Assembly (NCBI GenBank): GCA_963774955.1
Contig: CAVZGV010000003.1
Coordinates: 64,771-128,770 of the forward strand
Length of the DNA stretch: 64,000 nt
Origin: Candidatus Falkowbacteria bacterium
GTDB taxonomy: Bacteria; Patescibacteriota; Patescibacteriia; CAIXNZ01
Direction: 5' to 3'
In this document: positions 1,977 through 62,403 of the stretch, one piece after another
Position numbering within the stretch: position 1 is the first letter of the stretch
Layout of the letters: each line of letters begins with the position of its first letter
Notes under the pieces: generated by a model
Databases searched by the model: none
Seen by the model: only the letters and a program-made list of their open reading frames with translations
Told to the model about the DNA's origin: nothing
Position numbers and translations under genes: made by a program

Positions 1977-4590
1977 ATGGCTTTTGCTTCCACTCAAAAA
2001 TATTTGCATATTTCCGAATTTCGTAACGACATGGTCATTCTTAAAGACGGTACTTTGAGAATGGTTATTATGTGTTCCAGTGTTAATTTTGCGCTTAAAG
2101 GTGAAGATGAACAAAGCGCTTTGATCGCCGGCTACATGGAATTTTTAAATTCCATGGATTATCCTATCCAGATTGTGATCCAGTCCAGAAAATTAGACAT
2201 TGAAGGCTATATGCGTCGTCTGCAGGAGGCGCAAAAGGCTCAAACCAATGAGTTATTGAAGACACAAATTGACGGCTATCGCGGTTATATCAATCAATTA
2301 ATTGAAATGCAGGAAATAATGACCAAGAAATTTTTTATTGTTATACCATTTAATCCGCTTGGTTCTAAAAATAAGAGTTTTTTTGCCAGGTTAAAGGAGT
2401 CTTTATTCCCGGTCCATCTTATTCGTTTACGGAAAGAAAAATTAGCTGAATACAAGGATGAAATAATGCTTAGAGCTGATAACGTGATGTCTAATTTGAG
2501 ATCAATGGGGCTTGAAGCCGTGGTCTTGGATACTCAGAGCTTAATTGAGCTTTATTATAATGTATATAATCCCAAAACCAGCCAGAATGAGAGATTAAAA
2601 GATGTCAGCCAGATGGGCTTGGAAGCTTAAATATTATTTTGAATTTATTATCTTATGCCATTAGAAATTAATCAACAAACCCAAGGCCCTCAGCCAAAAC
2701 AGCCTAAAGTGACTGCGGCGCAAATGAAAGCCCAGGAATCATCAGCGGCCAAAGGCGAGGCCATTACCTTGGAAGAAGAAAAAATTTATCGCCACGGTGT
2801 GATGGATATCAAGGATTTGATTTCCCCGGCTGCTTTTGAAGTTAAGCCGACTTATTTAATTTTAGGGGATATTTATTGTCCGAACATTTTTTGTTTTGAA
2901 TTATCCTCGCTATATTAATATTGGTTGGTTTACTCCGATTGTTAATTTGAGTAAGACCCTGGATGTGGCGATGTTTTTTTATCCGGTTAAATCAGATATG
3001 ATTTTAAAGCAACTAAAAAAAAGAGTCGGTAATATGGAAGCCCAGCTGATGTCTGATATTGAAAAAGGCGCGCCACGTGATCCGATTTTGGAAACCGGTT
3101 TGCGAGACATTGAAAAATTAAGAGATGATTTGACCCAGGGCATTGAGCAATTTTTTCAATTTGCTCTTTATATCACCATTTATGCCAAAAATATGGAGGA
3201 ACTGGAACAATTCAGCTTCGGAAATTGAATCAATATTTGGCGGTAAATTGATTTATAGTAAAAAAGTTTTTTATCAGGCGGAACAGGGCTTTAATTCTAC
3301 TATTGCCCATGGCCAATGATGAACTGATGATTTCTTTTAATATGAATACTTCGCCGGTGCGCCTCTTCTTTTCCGTTTATTTCTTCAGAATTGACCTCTG
3401 ACAACGGAATTTTATACGGGATTAATCGTCATAATAATAGTTTGATTTTTTTTGACAGATTTTCTTTGCAAAATGCCAATACGGTGGTTTTTGCCACTTC
3501 CGGTGCCGGTAAAAGTTATGCTATTAAATTGGAAGTTTTGCGTAGTTTAATGTTGGGCACTGATGTAATTATTATTGATCCGGAAAGGGAATATAAGCAT
3601 TTGTCTGAAGCTGTCGGCGGAACTTATATTGATATTTCTTTATCTTCAAAAAATAAAATTAATCCTTTTGATTTGCCTCGAGCCATTGGCGATGCCACCA
3701 CCGAAGATATTATCAGAAGCGCGGTTATTACTTTAAAAGGTTTATTGACGTTAATGCTGGGTAAACTGACAATTGAAGAAGATTCAATTTTGGATCGCGC
3801 CTTAATGGAAACTTATGCCAGTAAAGATATTACTCCCCAGTCTGATTTGGCTAAGATTGAAGCGCCGATTATGCAGGATTTGCAGAATATTTTAGACGGC
3901 ATGGAAGGCGCAAGCAATTTAAGCTTGAGGTTGAAAAAATATACCGAAGGTACTTTTTCCGGTTTATTTAACTCAGCCGACCAATGTGGATATGAAAAAT
4001 CAGTTGGTTGTTTTTTCGTCCGAGATTTGGAAGATGAATTACGGCCAATTGCTATTTACAGTATTATTAATTATATCTGGAATGTGGTTCGTTCAGAGAT
4101 TAAAAAAAGAATTTTGGTTATTGATGAAGCCTGGTGGCTGATGACTAGTGAGGATTCGGCTAAATTTATTTATGCTCTGGTTAAACGTTGTCGTAAATAT
4201 TATCTGGGCGTAACCACCATTACTCAGGATGTTAATGATTTTTTAAATAATCCTTATGGCAAGGCAATTGTGACTAATTCTTCATTGCAATTGCTTTTGA
4301 AACAATCTCCGGCTTCAATTGAAAATATCGTTAAAATATTTATGTTGACTGAGGGTGAAAAATATTTGCTTTTGGAATGCGGAGTCGGTGAAGGTATTTT
4401 TTTTGCCGGCCAGAAACATGCCGCTATTAAAATTGTGGCTTCTTATACTGAAGATCAGCTAATTACCAGTGATCCGCATCAACTTTTGGAAATTGAAGCG
4501 TCTAAACGAGAATTTGAACAGAAAAATGCAGCTGGGGAAGAAGCAGGTCAGGCTCCAAAGCGGGAAGGTGTTGAGGAAATAGCAATTTAA
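1977..4590 (+). pseudogene. virB4: VirB4/TrbE/CagE-family type IV secretion ATPase, disrupted into >=5 pieces (1977-2630, 2655-2918, 2896-3228, ~3225-3390 in two further frames, 3391-4590)
   Basis: N-terminal CagE_TrbE_VirB-like domain in 1977-2630; Walker A FATSGAGKSYAIK and Walker B VIDEAWW in 3391-4590; in-frame TAA (2628-2630) and TGA (2640-2642) plus at least three frame changes; summed length about 860 aa as expected for VirB4. Confidence 0.6.
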
Positions 4591-9585: not shown

Positions 9586-10038
9586 ATGTCAGGAAGCAGG
9601 GATCGCGCTGGAAAAAAAGCGGAAGTAGAAAATGAAAAGTCAGGTAAACCGGAAAAGCCATTGGCTAAAAAGGAGGTAGAAAAGTTTCGTTTTTTATTGC
9701 AACGTAGACTTACAGAAGCTCAAAAAGTCTACCGGCAGGAGATCGGTAACGTCAAGGGCGCTGATTACAGTGATCAGGCCAGCCAGGAATGCGATTTAAG
9801 CGAGCAAATAAGGGCCAAAGACAAAGCCCGTAAGGAAATCTTTGAAATCCAGGCGGCTTTAGAGCGCATGGATAAAGAAGAATTCGGCATTTGCGAGGAT
9901 TGCGACGAACAAATTCCCAGGAAACGCCTGGAGTCGAGTCCGACCGCCAAATTCTGCATTACCTGCAAGATCGCCAACGAGCTGGCGGAAAAAAGGCTGG
10001 GCTACGGTCGAACTACGATCGTAGAGAGTGAGATCTAA
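9586..10038 (+). CDS. DksA/TraR-family C4 zinc-finger protein
   Basis: C-terminal CEDCDEQIP...CITCK four-Cys motif after coiled-coil; terminator 10056-10091. Confidence 0.7.
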   Translation: MSGSRDRAGKKAEVENEKSGKPEKPLAKKEVEKFRFLLQRRLTEAQKVYRQEIGNVKGADYSDQASQECDLSEQIRAKDKARKEIFEIQAALERMDKEEFGICEDCDEQIPRKRLESSPTAKFCITCKIANELAEKRLGYGRTTIVESEI

Positions 10039-10055
10039 AAAAAAACAAGGAGGGG

Positions 10056-10091
10056 GCGGACGGGCAGTTACCAGCTGTCCGCTCTTTTTTT
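10056..10091 (+). terminator. intrinsic terminator (gcggacgggcagttaccagctgtccgc + T-run)
   Basis: GC hairpin followed by tcttttttt. Confidence 0.7.
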
Positions 10092-10219
10092 ATGGTTACT
10101 AATCTAAGCGGGACGAATCAGCTACGAATCTACTAATGTAAAAAAATTTTTTTTAAGACGTGAGACGTAACACGCTTAACGATTCGAGCCTCGTAACCTA
10201 TTTACGTAAGACGCCTGCT

Positions 10220-10921
10220 TTATATTTTGGATACAAAAGGATTGTCCCTGAGATAAAAGCGCCAGGGTTTATGCTTGTAAGCGCCGGCGTAATCAACACC
10301 AATGCGTTTTGCACTTTGTATTTGAGAAGGTTTTCCGCCGGAGGCGGATCCGCCCTTGGCGGATATTTTTTCCTTGGGATTTTCAGCCAGATAAAGCTTG
10401 GGACTGGTAATGATATTTACCCCGTTTAATTTTTTATCAATTTTTAAGGCCTGGCAGAGTTTGGCCGAACCATTGGTAAGTACAGTATAAAGTCTAAAGT
10501 CTAGGCCGCGAAGCGGCATCCCGCAACGCGGGAAAGTTAAAAGTTTGGAATTTTTTATCTTAAGTTTACGATTTTTATACATTTGTTTAATGCCGGCGAC
10601 AGGTTCCAGGGCGCGGATTAAGATGGCGGCAGGGAAGTCCTTGGCTTCGGTTACAATATTAAAGCAATAATACATACCATAAACCAGATAAATATAAGCT
10701 GTACCCGGCTGGTCAAACATAATTTTGGTGCGTTCAGTTTTGCCGCGGGACGCATGTGAAGCTTTATCTTTCGGCCCGTAATAGGCCTCGGTTTCGACAA
10801 TTTTACCAATTAAAATATTTTTACCGTCTTGCCGCAGCAGGTATTTGCCCAAAAGTGCTTGAGCCAGCTTAAAGGTATTTTGTTTAAAAAAATTTGCGTT
10901 TAAACGTCGGTAGTTTGACAT
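10220..10921 (-). CDS. mpg: DNA-3-methyladenine glycosylase (Mpg/AAG family) carrying two in-frame repeat-derived insertions
   Basis: N-terminal ETEAYYGPKDKASHA...YIYLVYGMYYCFN, C-terminal RIGVDYA...WRFYL; about 35 aa longer than typical; extra segments coincide with repeats at 10334-10366 and 10487-10560. Confidence 0.75.
   Translation of the reverse strand: MSNYRRLNANFFKQNTFKLAQALLGKYLLRQDGKNILIGKIVETEAYYGPKDKASHASRGKTERTKIMFDQPGTAYIYLVYGMYYCFNIVTEAKDFPAAILIRALEPVAGIKQMYKNRKLKIKNSKLLTFPRCGMPLRGLDFRLYTVLTNGSAKLCQALKIDKKLNGVNIITSPKLYLAENPKEKISAKGGSASGGKPSQIQSAKRIGVDYAGAYKHKPWRFYLRDNPFVSKI
10334..10366. repeat. hairpin-pair repeat R1b, in frame inside mpg (encodes KGGSASGGK)
   Basis: tccgccggaggcggatccgcccttggcggatat; matches R1a. 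Confidence 0.7.
10487..10560. repeat. composite repeat inside mpg coding sequence: aaagtctaaagtcta + hairpin pair R2b (10506-10532) + aaagttaaaagtttggaa
   Basis: flanks match 7201-7246 (same flanks without the hairpin pair); R2b matches R2a. Confidence 0.65.
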
Positions 10922-25574: not shown

Positions 25575-26213
25575 TCAGAGTTCCTTCTGGCCTCGAATTT
25601 CTTCTCTTTCGAGGTATAACTCTTTTAGTTTTTGCCGCAGCTTTTCATTATTAATATTTCTGCCTTTTAAGCGACGGGTAAGCTTGGCAATTATTTGATT
25701 GACTCGTCCGCCGGAAATATCAAATTTTCGTCCGATTTCCTCGTATGAATATTCCCGGTGCTCCGGATTTAATCCGAATTTGAGTCTTATCATTTCTTCT
25801 TCTTTCGGCGAAAATTGAGCAATTGACTGCTCAATGGTTTCCAGAAGTTCTGTTTCCACTATCTCCAGATACGGTTCTGAAACAGTAGGCAAGCATTTGA
25901 GCCTTGATATGTCTGTGGCACTCAGTTCATGCAGAGACAATTCAATCGCTCTTTTAGGAGATTCAAGCTGATAGAGCTTCAGGGGAAAAAGTAGGTCAAT
26001 ATTAATTTTGAGAATTTCTGACAACCTGACGCAAAACGGCAGCCAGTTGCCTCGTTTGCCAATGGGTGATTTTTTCAGGTTGATCAAATCTCCAATATAG
26101 GTCATATGCAGGCCGCATTGCCGGCTAAAGGCGGCAATTGAAGCGTAGTTATCATAAATAGCATGATAAAGAACATTATTTCGGACTCTGATTTCCACTC
26201 GTACTTCTTCCAT
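25575..26213 (-). CDS. sigma-70 region 3/4-containing HTH protein (no recognisable region 2)
   Basis: SYEEIGRKFDISGGRVNQIIAKLTRRLK region-4 HTH. Confidence 0.5.
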   Translation of the reverse strand: MEEVRVEIRVRNNVLYHAIYDNYASIAAFSRQCGLHMTYIGDLINLKKSPIGKRGNWLPFCVRLSEILKINIDLLFPLKLYQLESPKRAIELSLHELSATDISRLKCLPTVSEPYLEIVETELLETIEQSIAQFSPKEEEMIRLKFGLNPEHREYSYEEIGRKFDISGGRVNQIIAKLTRRLKGRNINNEKLRQKLKELYLEREEIRGQKEL

Positions 26214-26354: not shown

Positions 26355-28208
26355 CTATGGCTTGTCGCTGAGCAGTTGCTCCAGTTGTTTCAGTTGCTCA
26401 GGAGTCAGGTTGTCCAGCCGTCGTTTGACTTCTTCGTTGTCTGTGTTGGTTTCGGCTTCTGCTTGCGCCGGTACGGTGATAGCATCGCTGGCTTGCTGAA
26501 TTTCGGATTTGGTAAATTCCACATCCGGCAGGTCAAAGCTTGCCATCTGGATAATGCCTTCGTTTGTTTCCAGGTAGGTAATCTTGGCTTGGTCATTGTC
26601 GCGGGCAATAGCCAGTTCTTCGGAGATTTTACTGGTACCGGAAAAAAGCTTGTCAGGCATTTGGTCCAGCCAAACGTAGTATATGGTTACTCCGTTTTGG
26701 CTGTCAGCTGCGATGCGTTTAATTTTGCCTTCAGCTTTTTTTACGTACTTTTCATTACTGGGAGCCATGGTATTGCCGTTGGAAGCCAGTAGCTTGCGAT
26801 ACTCGGCCAGTAATTCCGTTTTGTCCTGTCCGAATGCAACTCGTGAAGACGAGGCTTCGACCATGGCAATGCGCTGGAAAACATGCTGGTCCGAAAGAAT
26901 CGGTACCACCCAGGTAAGGGTGCCGTAAATGTTATAAAGGATTGGATCAGTCGGATGCCATTTGGCAGATTCTGCGCCTAAACCGCTGGAAACAGCCTGG
27001 ATTACCGCTGTTTCATTGGCGCCGTTGATGCGGTAGAAATATGATTTGGCGTTGCGAGAGTTGATCATCAGAAATCCGACCAAGGCGTTATCGCTGGCAG
27101 AAGATGAGGTCATGCCGGTAAACCAGTATGGCTGGCCGTCATTACCGTAGACTAGCCACATATCCAGTTTGCCTGCGACTTCTGTGGGAATCATCACATC
27201 CTGTTCCGACCAGATTGAATTCCACCAGCCGCGGGTGTATTTGCCCCGCCACTTGGCATACGAAAAAGCGATTTTCTGAGGGATGATTCGATCCACCCAG
27301 ACAGGAGCTTCTTCTGGTTTGTATTTTTCAATCTCTCCGGTTTCCGCGTTGACCAGAATTACTCCGGTAACCTTGTCGCCGGTGTAATGATGGATTAGGT
27401 CGTATTTGGTGATGACCCAATAAGGGTTCAATTCATCATCAACTTCAAAGGTAAAATCGGTCAGGCCGGTAAACTGGTAACCTTTGGCATAGACATAACG
27501 TCTGAGGTTGTCGCTAAACCAGCCGGTGGTGACATATTTCAATTTGCGCTGTTCAATCCTGACGGGTCGGTTGCGATCCTCGGCATTGACCATGATAAAA
27601 CCATAGGTTTCCCCATAGCTTTGCCAGGAGGCAAAACCATTGAATTCCAGGGGAGCAACCCACCACAGTTCGTCTTTGACGCGCTGGATATGGAGTGTGC
27701 CCACATGGAAACGGCTGCCGATATTGCCGGGGATTTTGCCGATGTCCTGATTGCCCAACCATTCGGCGTGTTCCTGGTCAATGATCCTGATGTGCTTGGT
27801 ATCAATCGGCTGAAAATCATCCTGCCAGGATTTATCTTCCACCTTGCCGATCATATCCCGCAGATTGACTGACTGGAACATACCCATGGAAAGGATACCC
27901 CGGATCAAAACCAGAACCAGCAGAACCACGAAAAGATAAGTGCCGCCGGGAAGCTCCTCCGAGGTTATCCCGGTGATTAATAGATTGATACTCATGGTCA
28001 GCAAAATCATGAAACTCAGACCCCAGAACGGTCCATAAAGACCGGGGCAGACGGCATAAACAATGCCTACCCATAAGATCAGGGCTACAACTGAACGGAT
28101 GATCCAACCCAAAAGCCATTTGCCATGACCGTCTTCTTTCAGTTGATTGAAATTGGGGTTAAACCCGCCGACGACGCTGACGATAAAAGCCACCCAAAGA
28201 TAACTCAT
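26355..28208 (-). CDS. hypothetical large membrane protein (N-terminal polytopic region + about 450-aa soluble domain); codon usage more GC-rich than neighbours
   Basis: 617-aa intact ORF, 4-5 N-terminal TM helices. Confidence 0.55.
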   Translation of the reverse strand: MSYLWVAFIVSVVGGFNPNFNQLKEDGHGKWLLGWIIRSVVALILWVGIVYAVCPGLYGPFWGLSFMILLTMSINLLITGITSEELPGGTYLFVVLLVLVLIRGILSMGMFQSVNLRDMIGKVEDKSWQDDFQPIDTKHIRIIDQEHAEWLGNQDIGKIPGNIGSRFHVGTLHIQRVKDELWWVAPLEFNGFASWQSYGETYGFIMVNAEDRNRPVRIEQRKLKYVTTGWFSDNLRRYVYAKGYQFTGLTDFTFEVDDELNPYWVITKYDLIHHYTGDKVTGVILVNAETGEIEKYKPEEAPVWVDRIIPQKIAFSYAKWRGKYTRGWWNSIWSEQDVMIPTEVAGKLDMWLVYGNDGQPYWFTGMTSSSASDNALVGFLMINSRNAKSYFYRINGANETAVIQAVSSGLGAESAKWHPTDPILYNIYGTLTWVVPILSDQHVFQRIAMVEASSSRVAFGQDKTELLAEYRKLLASNGNTMAPSNEKYVKKAEGKIKRIAADSQNGVTIYYVWLDQMPDKLFSGTSKISEELAIARDNDQAKITYLETNEGIIQMASFDLPDVEFTKSEIQQASDAITVPAQAEAETNTDNEEVKRRLDNLTPEQLKQLEQLLSDKP

Positions 28209-28684
28209 TTTCTTTACTCCTTTTCTTCTGTTTTTGAGGTACGTTTTTGTACTAAAAAGTACAAATAGCCATAAAAATTTACGACACCTTAGTATATAAT
28301 TTTAAAAGATTTTTGTCAATAAAAAAGACGACCTGCTATTTTGGGTCGTCTAGGTAAAACATCACTGAGATTTTTCAGGATTTGAATTCAAAATGGAATT
28401 AGAGTTTTTATCCTTGCGGATTAGGATAAGACTAAAAGCAAAGGGAGTTTGTCTTTTAGATTATCCATCGGGACGGCTGATTGTTACATATCCAGGCCAT
28501 TGGCCTTGGTCTTGTAAACTGATCAACCAAACTCTTGGAACAAGCATTTGGCAATGCCTGATCCTCTTAACCCGACGTTGGTTTTTATAGCCAGAAACCA
28601 GCATTCTTGTCTGACTATTTTGAGATAACTCAATTAAAAACCAACAATTTTAGTAATAATAACTTATCATATTATTGAATTTTT

Positions 28685-29128
28685 GTCAAGATTAATAAAA
28701 AAGCGGTCAGACAGGGTCTGACCGCGTAATGGTTTGGTTCGGATTCCGGGAGGCGCTGGGCGTCTTCCGCTTATAAGGCCAATTGGTCTTACTGGAATCC
28801 GATTTTTAAAGCGACCAGTGCCGCTTTAAATACAATATTAAGTGTTTCTGGGCGTCTCAAAAGCCAAGATGCTTGAGGATACGGCTAAAAGCGGATTTGC
28901 GCAAACCCACTCAAGCTTCTCCATCGGGCAGAGCAATCTTTCCTGATCGGAGGCAAATATCCTTAGAAAAGATTGCCAACACTTGGCCAGCGCTTCCTCG
29001 AGGCGGGGCTGCCTACCCCAAGCGCCAACCTTCAAACCCGACGTCAGATCCGGAGGCCGAACATTTGCCTCACTTACGCGACCGCATTTACGGCAGTCCA
29101 TGACCTGACAATTTAAATTTCGATTATG
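28685..29128 (-). ncRNA. candidate structured ncRNA of about 440 nt, unidentified class
   Basis: minus-strand sigma70 promoter TTGACA-17-TAATAT (plus coords 29134-29162), GC-rich body, intrinsic terminator gcggtcagaccctgtctgaccgc+TTTTTT at 28688-28716; only short, GC-codon-biased ORFs inside. Confidence 0.5.
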
Positions 29129-29133
29129 CTGCC

Positions 29134-29162
29134 ATATTAGCAAAAATAATAGGTAATGTCAA
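29134..29162 (-). promoter_or_regulatory. sigma70-type promoter (TTGACA, 17-nt spacer, TAATAT) driving the candidate ncRNA
   Basis: revcomp of 29157-29162 = TTGACA; revcomp of 29134-29139 = TAATAT. Confidence 0.6.
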
Positions 29163-29231
29163 TGGTTTGCCTTTTATTTTATTTTGAGATAAAATTAGAG
29201 TATTCAATTTATTATTTAACTTTTCAATACA

Positions 29232-30339
29232 ATGATTACAACTGTATTAATTTTTCTGATTGTTTTAGGTATTTTAGTGCTGGTTCACGAACTGGGACAT
29301 TTTTGCACTGCCAAATTAATGGGCATGAAGATTTACGAATTTGGTATCGGCTTTCCACCGAAAATCTGGAGCAAAAAGGGTAAAGACGGGGTGATTTACT
29401 CGATTAATTCTATACCTTTGGGCGGTTTTGTTAATTTAAGGGAAACAGAATCAGAGGCTTCTGATCCCAATAGTTTTATCAATAAGAAACCATGGAAAAG
29501 GGCCGTCGTTATTTTAGCCGGCGTAGCCATGAATTTTTTATTATGCGTTGTTTTGCTTTCATTTGGTTTTATGTTTGGCCTACCGCAGTCAGTGGATCAG
29601 GATGCGCTTAATTCCGGAATTGTAAAAGATTATAAAATTCAGGTGGTGACTGTTTTAGATGATAAACCAGCCAAAACTGCAGGAGTTGAAATCGGCGATG
29701 TGCTGCTGGCTGTTGATGACCAGAAATATTGCCAGTGTTAAGGATTTGGTTGTGTATACCAGTACTAAAATAGGGACGAAAGTTAATTTTAAATTTTTGC
29801 ATGAAAAAGAGGAAGTAACCAAGGAAATTGAAATTGCAGAATTGGAAAAAGGCAAGGGCGGTATTGGTGTTGGCTTGGTGGAAACCGGGATTGTTTCTTA
29901 TCCGGTTCATTTGGCTGTTTGGCACGGTGTGAAATTAACTTTGGCGCTAACTAAGGAATTTATTTTTGCTTTTGCCAATATTATAAAGAATTTAGTCATT
30001 GGCCAGCCAATCGGCGTCCAGGTTTCCGGTCCGGTCGGTATTGCGGTTTTAACCGGTCAGGTAGCCAAATTGGGTATAATTTATTTACTGCAATTTACGG
30101 CTTTACTCTCATTAAATTTGGCGATTATCAATGCGATACCGTTTCCGGCTTTTGACGGCGGTCATTTAGTCTTTATTATAATTGAAAAAATTCGCCGCAA
30201 GCCTGTTGATAAGAAAATTGAGGGTATAATTCATACTATTGGGTTTTCTTTGTTAATGCTATTGATTATTGTTATTACTTTTCAGGATATTTTAAGGTAT
30301 AGTCATTTTTTTAGTAATTTTTTCAGTAATTTGATTTAA
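29232..30339 (+). CDS. rseP: RseP-like site-2 protease (M50), interrupted by one frameshift near 29710-29740
   Basis: HELGHFCTAK HExxH, PDZ segment, C-terminal NLAIINAIPFPAFDGGH; two overlapping ORFs in frames 0 and 1 rejoin as ...VLLAVDDQK|IASVKDLVVY. Confidence 0.75.
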
Positions 30340-30409: not shown

Positions 30410-31450
30410 ATGGAATTAAAATTCAAAGAACTCAAAGAGCAGGCCTTGAAGGAGATTCAGGCGATTCGCAATTCGGAAGAGTGGCAGCAGATTGAGAATA
30501 AGTATTTTTCCAGAAAAAGCGGGGAATTGGCCAAGCTTTTGAAAGATCTCAAGGATGTTTCCGAGGATTTGCGTCCGAAAATTGGCGCGGTTGCCAATGA
30601 AATAAAAAATGAAATCAGTAAGGCTTTGGAACAAAAAAAAGTCAGATTTGAATTTGGATATTGATGAGGATTTGGAACATGATTTTATTGATGTAACTTT
30701 AGAAATTGAAAAATATAAGCTTGGTCATTTGCATCCTTTGACTCAGGTGCAAATGGAACTGGAAGATATTTTTAAATCCATGGGTTTTATGATTTTGGAC
30801 GGTCCGGAGCTGGAATCGGATTATTATAATTTTGAAGCTTTAAATCTTCCGTCTTGGCATCCGGCTCGTGATATGCAGGATACTTTTTATATTGATCCCA
30901 AGACTGTGAACGGCACGGAAAATTTGCTTATGCGCACTCAAACTTCACCGGTACAAGTGCGGGCAATGCAAAAATATGGCGCGCCTTTGCGTTGTGTGAT
31001 GCCCGGCCGTTGTTTTCGTAATGAAGCCACTGATGTGCGTCATGAACATACTTTTTATCAGATGGAAGGCTTGATGATTGATAAAAATATTTCTTTTAAT
31101 GATATGTGCGGTGTTTTTGGAAACAGTGGCTAAAGAATTATACGGAGATGACACTAAATTAAGATTGCGACCAAAATATTATCCTTTTGTGGAGCCGGGT
31201 GTTAACGGAGAAGTGACTTGTTTTTTGTGCCATGGCAAAGGTTGTAAATTATGCAAACAGACCGGCTGGCTGGAAATCGTCGGCGCGGGCATGGTTCATC
31301 CCAATGTTTTGAAAGCCGGCAATGTTGACCCCAATAAATATCAGGGTTTTGCTTTTGGTTTTGGCTTAACCGGTTGGTGATGCTGAAATACAATATTGAC
31401 GATGCCAGGTTATTGCAGAGTGGGGATTTACGTTTCTTAAACCAATTTTA
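30410..31450 (+). CDS. pheS: phenylalanine--tRNA ligase alpha subunit, interrupted by three single-nt frameshifts (about 30640, about 31100, about 31378)
   Basis: class II motifs across four frames: N-terminal helix, [28 protein letters not shown]-terminal [20 protein letters not shown]. Confidence 0.8.
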
Positions 31451-31457
31451 GATTATA

Positions 31458-31889
31458 ATGCAGTTGTATAATATAAAAGTGCATAAAGAGAAAAGAAGGA
31501 TTTTAAGAAACACAATGACACCCGCTGAAGTTGCGCTTTGGGTAGAATTGAAAAATGAAAAATTAGGATATAAATTTCGACGACAATATGGAGTCGGTCA
31601 CTATATAATTGATTTTTATTGTCCTCAACTTAAATTCGCCATTGAATTGGATGGCGATGTTCATGCCATTGATAGTGTTCATAAAAAAGATCTGATTAGG
31701 GATAAATTTTTGGAAGAATGCGGGATTACCATGAAAAGATTTTGGAATCACGAGATATTTGAGGATATAAATTCAGTTTTGGAGGTGATAGTTAATCTTT
31801 GTCAACAAAAAACCGATTGTAATTCTAAGGTACAGCCGTCTCATCCGGAGTCTCCCTCTAAGATTAGAGGGAGATACAGAGGGAGTTGA
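31458..31889 (+). CDS. DUF559 (Vsr/restriction-endonuclease-like fold) domain protein, copy 2, inserted between pheS and pheT
   Basis: 143 aa; FRRQY..YIIDFYCPQLKFAIELDGDVH; paralog of 12750-13175 in inverted orientation. Confidence 0.75.
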   Translation: MQLYNIKVHKEKRRILRNTMTPAEVALWVELKNEKLGYKFRRQYGVGHYIIDFYCPQLKFAIELDGDVHAIDSVHKKDLIRDKFLEECGITMKRFWNHEIFEDINSVLEVIVNLCQQKTDCNSKVQPSHPESPSKIRGRYRGS

Positions 31890-35986: not shown

Positions 35987-36053
35987 AACACGGATTTAAT
36001 TCACAGATAACACTGATTACTTTATCTGTGTAATCAGTGATTATAAATCAGTG
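35987..36053. repeat. solo copy of the inverted-repeat pair that flanks the GxxExxY gene at 63424-63879
   Basis: aaacacggattt..cacagat..cactgattac..atctgtg..aatcagtg; same words as 63424-63464 and 63849-63879. Confidence 0.6.
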
Positions 36054-36068
36054 GTTAATAATTCCCAT

Positions 36069-36362
36069 ATGCTTATCGAGACTACTAAAGACATTTTATA
36101 TATAGTAATTTCCTTTGTCGTCCTTTTGTTGACTATTTTTATTTGCTGGGCGATTTATTATGTGGCGATGATTTTACGGGAATTTAAAAAAATTGTCATG
36201 GATATGCGCAAGAAAATAGAGTTGGTTGAGGCTGTTTTAACTACGTTTAAAGAAAAAATTGAACACACTTCCAGCTATATGAAGCTTTTAGTGGAAAGCG
36301 CAGGGAATATTGTGGAATTTCTAAAGGATAGGAAGGAAGAAAAGTCTAAGAAGAAGAAATAG
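36069..36362 (+). CDS. small membrane protein (start taken at ATG 36069; ORF track begins at GTG 36051)
   Basis: one TM helix, Lys-rich C-terminus. Confidence 0.45.
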   Translation: MLIETTKDILYIVISFVVLLLTIFICWAIYYVAMILREFKKIVMDMRKKIELVEAVLTTFKEKIEHTSSYMKLLVESAGNIVEFLKDRKEEKSKKKK

Positions 36363-36420
36363 AAGATTAGGACTTAGGCATTAAGAATTTGAATACCCGT
36401 TAGCGGGTATTCTTTTAGTC

Positions 36421-36449
36421 TTGACAAGGTTATAATAATATGATAGATT
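36421..36449 (+). promoter_or_regulatory. sigma70-type promoter with extended -10 (TTGACA-17-TGnTAGATT)
   Basis: read directly. Confidence 0.5.
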
Positions 36450-36455
36450 AAAGAT

Positions 36456-36716
36456 GCTCAAATGCCGCCGAGGCAGATCTCGGCCTGATTCCGCTTCGGA
36501 TCAGAATGACTTGAAAAACTGGTTTTCGGCAGCTTTTACAGGGTTTTGAGCCAGGCTTTTCCGAGCGCATCGTGGCCACTTGCCTGGGCGGAAGTCGCCC
36601 TTCATAAGCGAGAGGACGCACACGCACAAGTCGAGAAAAAAAAGAGATTATTTTTTCGGTCTGAAAAGCTGCCATCCCATTTCTTATTGCCGGAGTCCAC
36701 GTACTCCGGTTTTTTT
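36456..36716 (+). ncRNA. candidate structured RNA of about 260 nt (ncRNA or leader), unidentified class
   Basis: promoter at 36421-36449; GC-rich body with long-range pairing ggcagctttt (36526-36535) / aaaagctgcc (36664-36673); terminator ccggagtccacgtactccgg+TTTTTTT at about 36690-36716. Confidence 0.45.
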
Positions 36717-36739
36717 ATTAGCTGATTTATAGGTCTAGA

Positions 36740-61538: not shown

Positions 61539-61590
61539 AATTTATTCAAATAATAAGATACCAACAAACAGCTAACAAGGAGGGTTTAAA

Positions 61591-61872
61591 ATGGCGGGAA
61601 TAGCGGTTAGGCCGAATGCTTCGGAGTACCATGAAATCACCAGCCTGTCGATTGATGACCATGGTTGGGAAGTCGTAACCAAAGAAGGTAAAAAGTTCCA
61701 TTTTGACGGCAGGCCAATTTGGGCGGAACATCTTGACAAGGCTGACACGCTCTTGGTTGATGTCAAAAGGGGCTTTGTGCTTATTCCGCCTTTACAGCCG
61801 ATTCCCCATAAGATTTATGATCCTGGGGAACGGTCAGCTGACAAGGGCCGAGAAGTGATTGAGAGTCCTTGA
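61591..61872 (+). CDS. hypothetical small protein
   Basis: RBS aaggaggg; terminator about 61888-61920. Confidence 0.45.
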   Translation: MAGIAVRPNASEYHEITSLSIDDHGWEVVTKEGKKFHFDGRPIWAEHLDKADTLLVDVKRGFVLIPPLQPIPHKIYDPGERSADKGREVIESP

Positions 61873-62013
61873 ATTTAACTTTTTTCATTTAAAGCGCACC
61901 AGCGGGTGTGCTTTTTTTTATAGTAGAAAAATTGAAAATAGAAAATATTTAGGGGATTGACAGGAGTGATTTTTATTGCTACGATTTGAAATCAATAAAG
62001 GGAGGGCAAGACA

Positions 62014-62235
62014 ATGAAAATTCGGAACTTGATCAATGGGCTTCTCGTAGGATTGAAGCGATACTATCAGGCAAGGAAGTTGCACTATCGTCTTTCACGC
62101 CTGAAAACCGAAGTGCATAATCATCCAGAGACAAGACCCAGGATACTATTTACTGGCACAGGCGGACGCATACGCGATGTGCCAGTGGGTCCTATTGAGT
62201 TTAAAGTTGAGCCGGAAAAAGATATCAAGCTTTAA
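62014..62235 (+). CDS. hypothetical small protein
   Basis: RBS aagggaggg; terminator about 62262-62295. Confidence 0.4.
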   Translation: MKIRNLINGLLVGLKRYYQARKLHYRLSRLKTEVHNHPETRPRILFTGTGGRIRDVPVGPIEFKVEPEKDIKL

Positions 62236-62403
62236 TTTGAGCGAAAACATTAATTTAAATCGCTCTGAGGTATATTACCTCGGGGCTTTTTTTTATGGCT
62301 GTTATTTGGTAAAATAAAGGTAGAATTTAAGTGTTAAAGCGTTTAAGCATTTAAGCACTAAAATTCTTAAATTCTGTAACTCTAAAACACTAACTTTAAA
62401 ATT

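Follow-up and report, generated by a model that had tools for sequence, protein, structure and literature searches.

A block of DNA richer in guanine and cytosine (GC) than its surroundings, preceded by a promoter and closed by a terminator, raises the question of what it encodes. We addressed this question for positions 28,685 to 29,170 of a 64,000-nucleotide (nt) stretch from Candidatus Falkowbacteria bacterium (GenBank assembly GCA_963774955.1, contig CAVZGV010000003.1), a stretch referred to below as the window. An earlier note on this DNA had proposed a non-coding RNA (ncRNA) of about 440 nt, bounded by its own promoter and terminator and of unassigned class, with a small protein gene as an alternative. 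Our analysis supports the RNA: no Rfam family matches the locus, and its orthologues keep the structure through compensatory changes. We consider it very probable that the locus is a genuine structured ncRNA gene, with a predicted product of ~430 nt from an uncatalogued family. The flagged unit is thus real, although a second unit directly downstream and the wider family had been missed. To describe them we compare the window with loci from related genomes, designated by L-numbers (L001, L023, L067 and so on).

The transcription signals on the minus strand, where both RNA units of the window, their promoters and terminators and the two protein genes downstream of them also lie, are well defined. 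Promoter P1 (29162..29134) is of the sigma-70 type and consists of a -35 element TTGACA (29162..29157), a 17-nt spacer and an extended -10 element TGcTAATAT, with the -10 hexamer TAATAT at 29139..29134 and a TG ahead of it. It matches the consensus at 10/12 positions, as its description as near-consensus had implied. An equivalent occurs at the matching position in five other loci (L023, L073, L067, L074 and L070), so that a conserved form can be written as GCAAACCnTTGAC, 17 nt, TGnTAAnnT, oriented divergently from rseP. At the other end, the predicted perfect terminator was found at 28725..28697, with a 10-base-pair (bp) stem, a 3-nt loop and a T6 run; its hairpin (28725..28703) reads GCGGTCAGACC-CTG-GGTCTGACCGC, and 7/10 pairs are G-C. 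Its counterparts in L023, L073, L067 and L074 show compensatory changes, with one such change in L023. Between these signals lies the RNA of unit 1 (29127..28697), ~430 nt long and 51% GC, with its 5' end inferred ~7 nt past the -10 element and its 3' end set at the T run. Measured over 28700-29135, the GC content is 50.9%, close to the roughly 50% reported before, compared with 39.7% for the window. The immediate flanks have 26-37%, so that the earlier figure of about 35% for the surrounding DNA was roughly right locally. The conserved sigma-70-type promoter and the intrinsic terminator indicate that unit 1 is probably an independent bacterial transcription unit.

The predicted folding energy points in the same direction. 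Unit 1 has a minimum free energy (MFE) of -167.8 kcal/mol, compared with -139.0 +/- 5.8 kcal/mol for dinucleotide shuffles (z = -5.0; 0/100 shuffles equal it), and the opposite strand folds less well (z = -4.35). Similar or lower z-scores were obtained for the corresponding RNA in L023 (-5.9) and L073 (-7.8), and for unit 2 of the window (-5.8), the downstream paralogue described below. These scores, together with the compensatory changes, indicate that unit 1 is an evolutionarily conserved structured ncRNA, as judged from only four sequences.

The protein-coding alternative was an 87-amino-acid (aa) CxxC protein beginning MDCRKCG. Its start codon, which the earlier note had placed at 29082, is in fact at 29101, and the open reading frame (87 or 101 aa) is intact in the window. 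However, the comparison that the note itself had proposed, between codon positions, speaks against translation. Between the window and L023, substitutions at codon positions 1, 2 and 3 number 18/15/22, without third-position bias, and 30 codon changes are non-synonymous compared with 11 synonymous. In L023 the ATG is replaced by TAG, the CxxC motif is lost and a stop follows early, after 'ANPL'; the frame is not kept in L073 or in unit 2 either. The ATG has no Shine-Dalgarno sequence ahead of it, public records annotate no gene at this place, and the product belongs to no Pfam family. A word-index search of 5.8 billion proteins returned no word-sharing homologue, and phmmer against 1.84 billion representatives gave two spurious matches, a Listeria-Bacteroides-repeat/leucine-rich-repeat protein and an open reading frame across three eukaryotic tRNA-Leu genes, neither of which reflects nucleotide homology. 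The chance that the locus is this small protein gene is therefore close to negligible, and we take the RNA of unit 1 not to be translated.

The pattern of substitution further distinguishes a maintained RNA from idle DNA. The closest relative is L023, a Candidatus Parcubacteria metagenome-assembled genome (LacPavin_0920_SED3_MAG_40_21), in which both the promoter and the terminator of unit 1 are conserved. The two RNAs (window unit 1 and L023:1872-2307) are 79.5% identical over 431 nt. Among the predicted base pairs, 106 are unchanged, 6 have compensatory changes, 13 are changed on one side and 0 are broken. Paired columns differ at 25/250 positions (10%) and unpaired columns at 80/201 (40%), with third codon positions as a neutral yardstick differing at 38% in rseP and at 19% in the gene for a 617-aa membrane protein downstream. 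Non-functional DNA, left over from a mobile element or from a foreign GC-rich source and now decaying, might be expected in a hypervariable spot such as this one, since the slot between rseP and a racemase gene differs in almost every relative and the RNA is patchily distributed. Yet conservation is four times better at paired than at unpaired positions, the helices are kept by compensatory change across copies that are otherwise unalignable, and the promoter and terminator persist. Repeats, terminal inverted repeats and further copies of the RNA were looked for within the window, and none was found. We regard decay as very unlikely.

The second unit shares the core of the structure. Promoter P2 (28689..28661; TTGACA at 28689..28684, 17 nt, TGaTAAGTT) begins ten nt past the unit 1 terminator and drives unit 2 (28655..28321), an RNA of ~335 nt and 37% GC. 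P2 was absent from the list of a consensus scan because its -10 element matches at only 3/6 positions. The unit 2 terminator (28350..28321), read from the sequence and the fold, consists of GACGACC, a 10-nt loop, GGUCGUC and T6, and was missed by the terminator scan because the loop is too long. Unit 2 is a diverged paralogue of the unit 1 core. Its helices could be placed as H1 at 28645..28577, Pc at 28576..28571 with 28472..28467, P-lr at 28535..28529 with 28407..28401, and H3 at 28528..28475. The motifs ACGUCGGGUU, CCCGAUGGAnAAnCU, GCUUUUAGnCnUAUCC and AAACnCU are collinear in the two units. A covariance model, R1, was built from the 174-nt core of window unit 1 and its L023 orthologue; with this model, made from unit 1 orthologues only, unit 2 is the best non-self match in the window, at 31.2 bits (E ~4e-7, a rough value).

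A more distant orthologue was recognised by its core, at 25.6 bits, in L073 (GCA_041308785.1), where the conserved promoter drives an RNA of ~530 nt. The core alignment therefore holds three orthologues (window unit 1, L023 and L073) and one paralogue (unit 2), and 96.8% of its cells are paired. It contains 12 double-sided pair changes, compared with 4.3 +/- 1.7 in shuffles; 0/500 shuffles reach 12, and slid controls give at most 2. Compensatory changes were thus found in L023, L073 and unit 2 when homologues were examined for covariation, as the earlier note had recommended.

Several observations nevertheless weigh against this interpretation or reduce the weight of its statistics. There are only four sequences of the type found in the window (type 1) and two of a variant described below (type X), all from one clade, and the covariation statistics are therefore thin. 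The core alignment was fitted to the model and is biased towards the proposed structure. A plain terminator hairpin reaches 21 bits with the covariance model, whose E-values are rough, so that scores of 25-31 bits are not far above noise. By sequence alone, the similarity between units 1 and 2 is weak (Smith-Waterman p ~0.05 against shuffles), and nhmmer with unit 1 alone fails to find unit 2. Two elements of the predicted core are also less secure than the rest: the helix that would close it (Pc) is invariant and hence unproven, and the pseudoknot is supported by a single U-A to A-U swap.

The type-1 RNA has a recognisable order of helices, and a per-sequence helix table shows that every helix forms in each of the four copies, from largely different sequences. 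H1 (29109..29043) is a Y-shaped three-way junction of 67 nt, with a basal stem GUCAGGUC/GAUCUGAC and two hairpin arms. It measures 66-69 nt in all four copies, which differ in stem sequence and retain the pairing; the Y shape is the MFE structure in L023, L073 and unit 2, and lies 3.5 kcal/mol above the MFE in window unit 1. Helix checks for H1 were made on each sequence separately because MAFFT had set the arms out of register in the common-column alignment. H2 (29030..28985) is a branched hairpin GGUUGGCGCUU...AAGCGCUGGCC with the tips GGGG/CCCC and CCUCGAGG, and five of its pairs are changed on both sides between copies. H3 (28977..28932) is a long hairpin GGCAAUCUUUUCU...AGGAAAGAUUGCU, with one pair swapped from C-G to U-A in L023; the same hairpin is made in L073 and unit 2, from different sequences. 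H4 (28922..28877) has a GGA...UCC base, GCU/AGC, a 10-bp apical stem and a GCGC loop, and holds the conserved motif GCUUUUAGCCGUAUCC, which is common to unit 2. A base pair of H4 changes from G-C to A-U in L073 (giving a GAA/UUC base), and its apical stem covaries. H5, between H4 and the 3' strand of P-lr, and H6 (28827..28808; AAAGCG...CGCUUU) are small variable hairpins; H6 is kept with replaced sequence in L073 and unit 2, and was judged by eye in L023.

Two further helices would tie these elements together. Pc pairs GUCGGG (29042..29037) with CCCGAU (28928..28923), the latter inside the conserved motif CCCGAUGGAGAAGCU, and closes the junction of H2 and H3. It forms in the MFE structure of the isolated core and is identical in all four copies; it shows no covariation because it never varies. 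P-lr pairs AGUGUU (28983..28978), in the H2/H3 junction, with AACACU (28846..28841). Its strands are AGUGUU/AACACU in window unit 1 and L023, and AGAGUU(U)/(A)AACUCU in L073 and unit 2, the latter two sharing the one U-A to A-U swap. P-lr is predicted in several folds, including the centroid of unit 2. Together, Pc and P-lr would probably form a pseudoknot.

The loop of H4 deserves separate mention. The self-complementary GCGC is found at 28899-28902 in the window, at 2099-2102 in L023 and at ~741-744 in L073, and is kept in these three orthologues while the closing stems differ (UUU/AAA versus AGAC/GUUU). It might mediate loop-loop dimerisation, or it might be a by-product of a palindromic repeat. 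Such a loop, the predicted pseudoknotted core with its invariant junction nucleotides, and the presence of tRNAs in the same slot in L070 would all suit an RNA that functions without protein, either as a ribozyme or as a self-assembling ornate RNA like ROOL, GOLLD or OLE. GOLLD and ROOL often adjoin tRNA genes. On the other hand, the RNA has no similarity to ROOL, GOLLD or OLE, unit 2 has no GCGC loop, the sequences that share it are three related ones, and any spacer-less inverted repeat yields a palindromic loop. We therefore consider a protein-free function rather unlikely.

The 3' part of the RNA is the most variable in number. Module M (28802..28739) is a 64-nt Y-shaped element, UCGGAUUCC...GGAAUCCGA, present in 0 copies in unit 2, 1 in window unit 1 and L023, and 3 in tandem in L073. 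The module consensus is UUCGGnnCC...GGnnCCGAAUC, with 57-77 nt per copy and A-rich linkers between copies.

How the family is distributed became apparent by two routes. Searching through the 617-aa protein yielded 41 genome loci and several metagenome loci, and of these only L023, where that protein is 93% identical, carries the RNA. In L001, L003 and L064 the synteny of rseP and the 617-aa gene is retained, with a spacer of only 240-320 nt and no RNA unit. Synteny through RseP was the productive route to the clade. It leads to a slot between rseP and an Asp/Glu racemase gene that is hypervariable and may hold an acetyltransferase, a sigma-70-region-4-like protein of ~200 aa, the 617-aa gene, tRNAs or RNAs. 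In L067/L068 and in L074, the conserved promoter drives a different RNA of 376 nt, which we term type X (L067 4530-4905 and L074 1-385, both on the minus strand). Type X is likewise GC-rich, ~376 nt long and strongly folded (z = -5.0 in L067). Between L067 and L074, 94 of its pairs are unchanged, 6 are compensatory and 0 are broken, with a divergence of 7% at paired and 38% at unpaired positions. A module within type X can be aligned with the first of the L073 modules. Type X thus joins a 5' domain of another kind to a related 3' part, and its terminator is similar. In L070, tRNA-Glu and tRNA-His (2805-2973, minus strand) stand under the same promoter, so that the slot appears to serve stable RNA genes generally; in L069 and L072 it is empty. 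The family is thus modular, with alternative 5' domains and a variable number of 3' modules under one promoter, and is so far known only from one clade of Candidatus Parcubacteria.

Motif searches beyond this clade added no members. A strict two-motif pattern gave 0 matches in viral and 0 in genome contigs. With a looser pattern, 18 matches came from metagenome contigs, which is about the chance expectation, and none of them had an upstream GTCGGG or further similarity to either unit; two that were inspected proved to be a Bacteroides capsule-locus spacer and a coding region. Four further motif scans of viral sequences returned either 0 matches or matches within phage coding regions (L075, L076). 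DNA similarity to phages, plasmids and E. coli did not go beyond a 48-nt chance match, and neither the conserved 5' leader nor the GCUUUUAG motif was complementary to other sequences of the window beyond chance level.

Could the RNA nevertheless be a known one? A cmscan of the whole window against Rfam 15 (4227 families) at the gathering score returned only six tRNAs, all of them elsewhere. At E<=10, the locus, its L023 orthologue and the type X of L067 matched only unrelated short small-RNA and small-nucleolar-RNA models, at 12-27 bits. The families whose motifs the earlier note had failed to recognise by eye, or had listed for checking (RNase P, tmRNA, SRP, 6S, OLE, GOLLD, ROOL and raiA), are thereby without a match, as are HEARO and the other Rfam 15 families, and ARAGORN agrees in finding no tmRNA in the window. 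For RNase P RNA (RF00010/RF00011), the P4 strands GGAAAGUCC and ACAGAAnCCGGCUUA are also absent; a P4-like reading of AAGUGUU/AACACUU with CAGAA was rejected because CAGAA, which occurs only once, is not conserved in L023, where it is UAAAA. For SRP and 6S RNA, the predicted fold is multi-branched and not rod-like. A group I intron or an intron-containing tRNA finds no match to RF00028 (Intron_gpI) at E<=10 and no flanking tRNA halves. The helix order of group I introns is P3, P4-P6, P7, P3', P8, P7', with which the order seen here (Pc 5', H2, P-lr 5', H3, Pc 3', H4, H5, P-lr 3') is incompatible. The basal stem of H1 resembles the acceptor stem of tRNA-Leu, but T and D arms are missing and no tRNA model matches, and a tRNA-like reading of H1 was rejected. 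An anti-Shine-Dalgarno role was suggested by three occurrences of CCUCC, which are only partly conserved, and CsrA-type GGA motifs are not enriched (9 counted by eye, ~7 expected). In the searchable literature, we found no description of such an RNA.

A housekeeping RNA (RNase P, tmRNA, SRP or 6S) so divergent that the Rfam models miss it would agree with the size, the GC enrichment and the stable-RNA-type promoter, which drives tRNA genes in L070. It would, however, have had to escape detection at E<=10 in three different copies, evade ARAGORN as a tmRNA and share no DNA similarity with E. coli. Relatives whose RseP is 80-85% identical have another 5' domain (L067, L074), tRNAs (L070) or nothing (L069, L072) in its place, and two copies are present in the window; such fluidity is not that of essential RNAs. 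We see very little chance that this explanation is correct. Instead, the six sequences from one clade appear to represent a new RNA family.

Whether the RNA acts on its own or as the leader of the next gene depends largely on the downstream promoters. Promoter P3 (28319..28291; TTGACA, 17 nt, TATACT) matches the consensus at 11/12 positions and serves the 617-aa gene. In L023, which lacks unit 2, the promoter orthologous to P2 drives that gene directly. Unit 2 together with a terminator and promoter resembles an insertion of 370 bp placed precisely where transcription of the 617-aa gene starts, and this putative insertion is flanked by a duplicated TTGACAAAAAT promoter. Unit 2 could be a gain in the lineage of the window, or it could have been lost in L023 through recombination between the promoter repeats. 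As a cis-acting leader, a very large riboswitch-like or attenuator element, unit 1 would let transcription from P1 read into the downstream gene unless the terminator forms. The RNA does always lie upstream of, and co-oriented with, a protein gene (for the 617-aa protein or the sigma-70-region-4-like protein), and other bacteria do have large folded leaders that end in terminators. Yet the terminator is strong and conserved, a separate near-consensus promoter follows within 10 nt in every locus, and no alternative anti-terminator pairing was seen. Furthermore, there are two units in tandem, and in some relatives that lack the RNA this promoter appears to serve the same downstream genes. We consider a cis-acting role unlikely.

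We therefore favour an RNA that would act in trans. Stable and highly folded, it may bind protein as a scaffold or decoy, and its reiterated 3' modules would then be the repeated sites of binding. Among possible partners, the most obvious candidate is a neighbouring fast-evolving helix-turn-helix protein, the sigma-70-region-4-like protein (212 aa; 26213..25575; also L067 3791-4405 and L069 4217-4816). Its identity is 36-52% where that of RseP is 80-85%, and its sole family signal is sigma-70 region 4, including the C-terminus of the defence-associated MzaA. In L067/L068 and L073 the gene for this protein immediately follows the RNA; in the window it comes after the intervening 617-aa gene. 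It thus accompanies the RNA in 3/3 loci for which downstream DNA is available (the window, L067/L068 and L073). Against this association, L069 has the gene but not the RNA, the two are kept apart in the window by the 617-aa gene, and the slot is hypervariable, so that the neighbourhood may be accidental. The scaffold or decoy mechanism, suggested by module reiteration and gene neighbourhood, is accordingly a tentative proposal that we hold with well below even confidence. When it is combined with the much firmer identification of a structured ncRNA gene, our overall confidence in the two is somewhat better than even.

A bolder version of this proposal is that the RNA and the sigma-70-region-4-like protein constitute a new RNA-protein system of the Candidate Phyla Radiation (CPR), in which 5' 'heads' are swapped, 3' 'handles' are reiterated and the protein is titrated or guided. 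The system would sit in a hypervariable, defence-island-like slot and diversify by module swap and duplication; in a variant of the idea, an RNA-only particle would self-assemble through the GCGC loop. We offer this as a speculation that is more probably wrong than right by a wide measure.

The surroundings of the RNA units show several further features. The 617-aa gene (28208..26355) encodes a multi-pass membrane protein without a Pfam, NCBIfam or PADLOC family. In three relatives it is GC-richer than the genome (44-49% compared with 35-40%), and homologues of the protein occur in Parcubacteria, Saccharibacteria, Bdellovibrionota and Eremiobacterota. On the other side of the RNA, rseP (29232-30339) carries one single-base insertion and pheS (30410-31380) two, relative to intact orthologues; these three frameshifts in 2.1 kb, immediately beside the RNA locus, may be assembly errors or real pseudogenes. 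A DUF559/restriction-endonuclease-like gene (31458-31889) lies between pheS and pheT, and several relatives have an IS200/IS605 Y1 transposase exactly at its position, marking a second small insertion hotspot. Within the variable neighbourhood of the RNA, L003 has ~900 nt of non-coding DNA (9723-10617) upstream of a 313-aa reverse transcriptase (RVT_1); this stretch could be a retron- or DRT-type ncRNA, and model R1 does not match it. Two other parts of the window, 35992-36739 and 61539-62403, each exceed 700 nt without an open reading frame of at least 110 aa, and R1 gives no match there.

To our knowledge, few bacterial ncRNAs of more than ~300 nt have intricate conserved folds, and those characterised so far have all revealed unusual biochemistry. 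CPR genomes are tiny and have little room for idle DNA, and here ~0.8 kb is given to two such RNAs. Domain-by-domain evolution is uncommon for structured RNAs, and in this family alternative 5' domains and 0-3 copies of the 3' module are seen among relatives with 80-90% identity in their housekeeping proteins. Should the link to the sigma-70-region-4-like protein be true, it would point to a new form of RNA-based regulation or defence among organisms that cannot yet be cultured. If it is untrue, what is left is a new, well-delimited class of RNA whose sequences, boundaries and testable secondary structure would suit an Rfam entry.

Comparison with known systems places the RNA among several groups without identity to any of them. 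With RNase P RNA, tmRNA and SRP RNA it shares the size class, the GC enrichment and a transcription unit of the stable-RNA type, and its distribution is unlike that of an essential gene. Group I introns interrupt tRNA genes in Patescibacteria and are overlooked by standard tRNA finders (Nakagawa et al., mSystems 2026, PMC13011429); they resemble our RNA in phylum, in being structured RNAs of a few hundred nt and in a pseudoknotted core, which for our RNA is a prediction, and tRNAs occupy the slot in one relative. Like CsrB/RsmZ and 6S RNA, the new RNA has a strong promoter and terminator and reiterated modules that change fast in number (0, 1 or 3). It differs from CsrB/RsmZ in that GGA is not enriched and that the conserved part of the module is the base of a stem, with no loop motif. 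A neighbouring gene encodes a sigma-factor-like protein. Of 6S RNA, which sequesters RNA polymerase, the rod with a central bubble is lacking, and there is no Rfam match. OLE, GOLLD, ROOL and raiA are also several hundred nt long and multi-branched, with a pseudoknotted core of the kind predicted here, have a stand-alone promoter and terminator, are GC-rich relative to the host genome and narrow in phylogenetic range, and have functions that cannot be deduced from the sequence. The RNA gene moreover adjoins a membrane-protein gene, as ole adjoins oapA. The new RNA is shorter than OLE, GOLLD and ROOL, and it is much more fluid, with a swappable 5' domain, a variable number of 3' modules, and presence or absence among close relatives.

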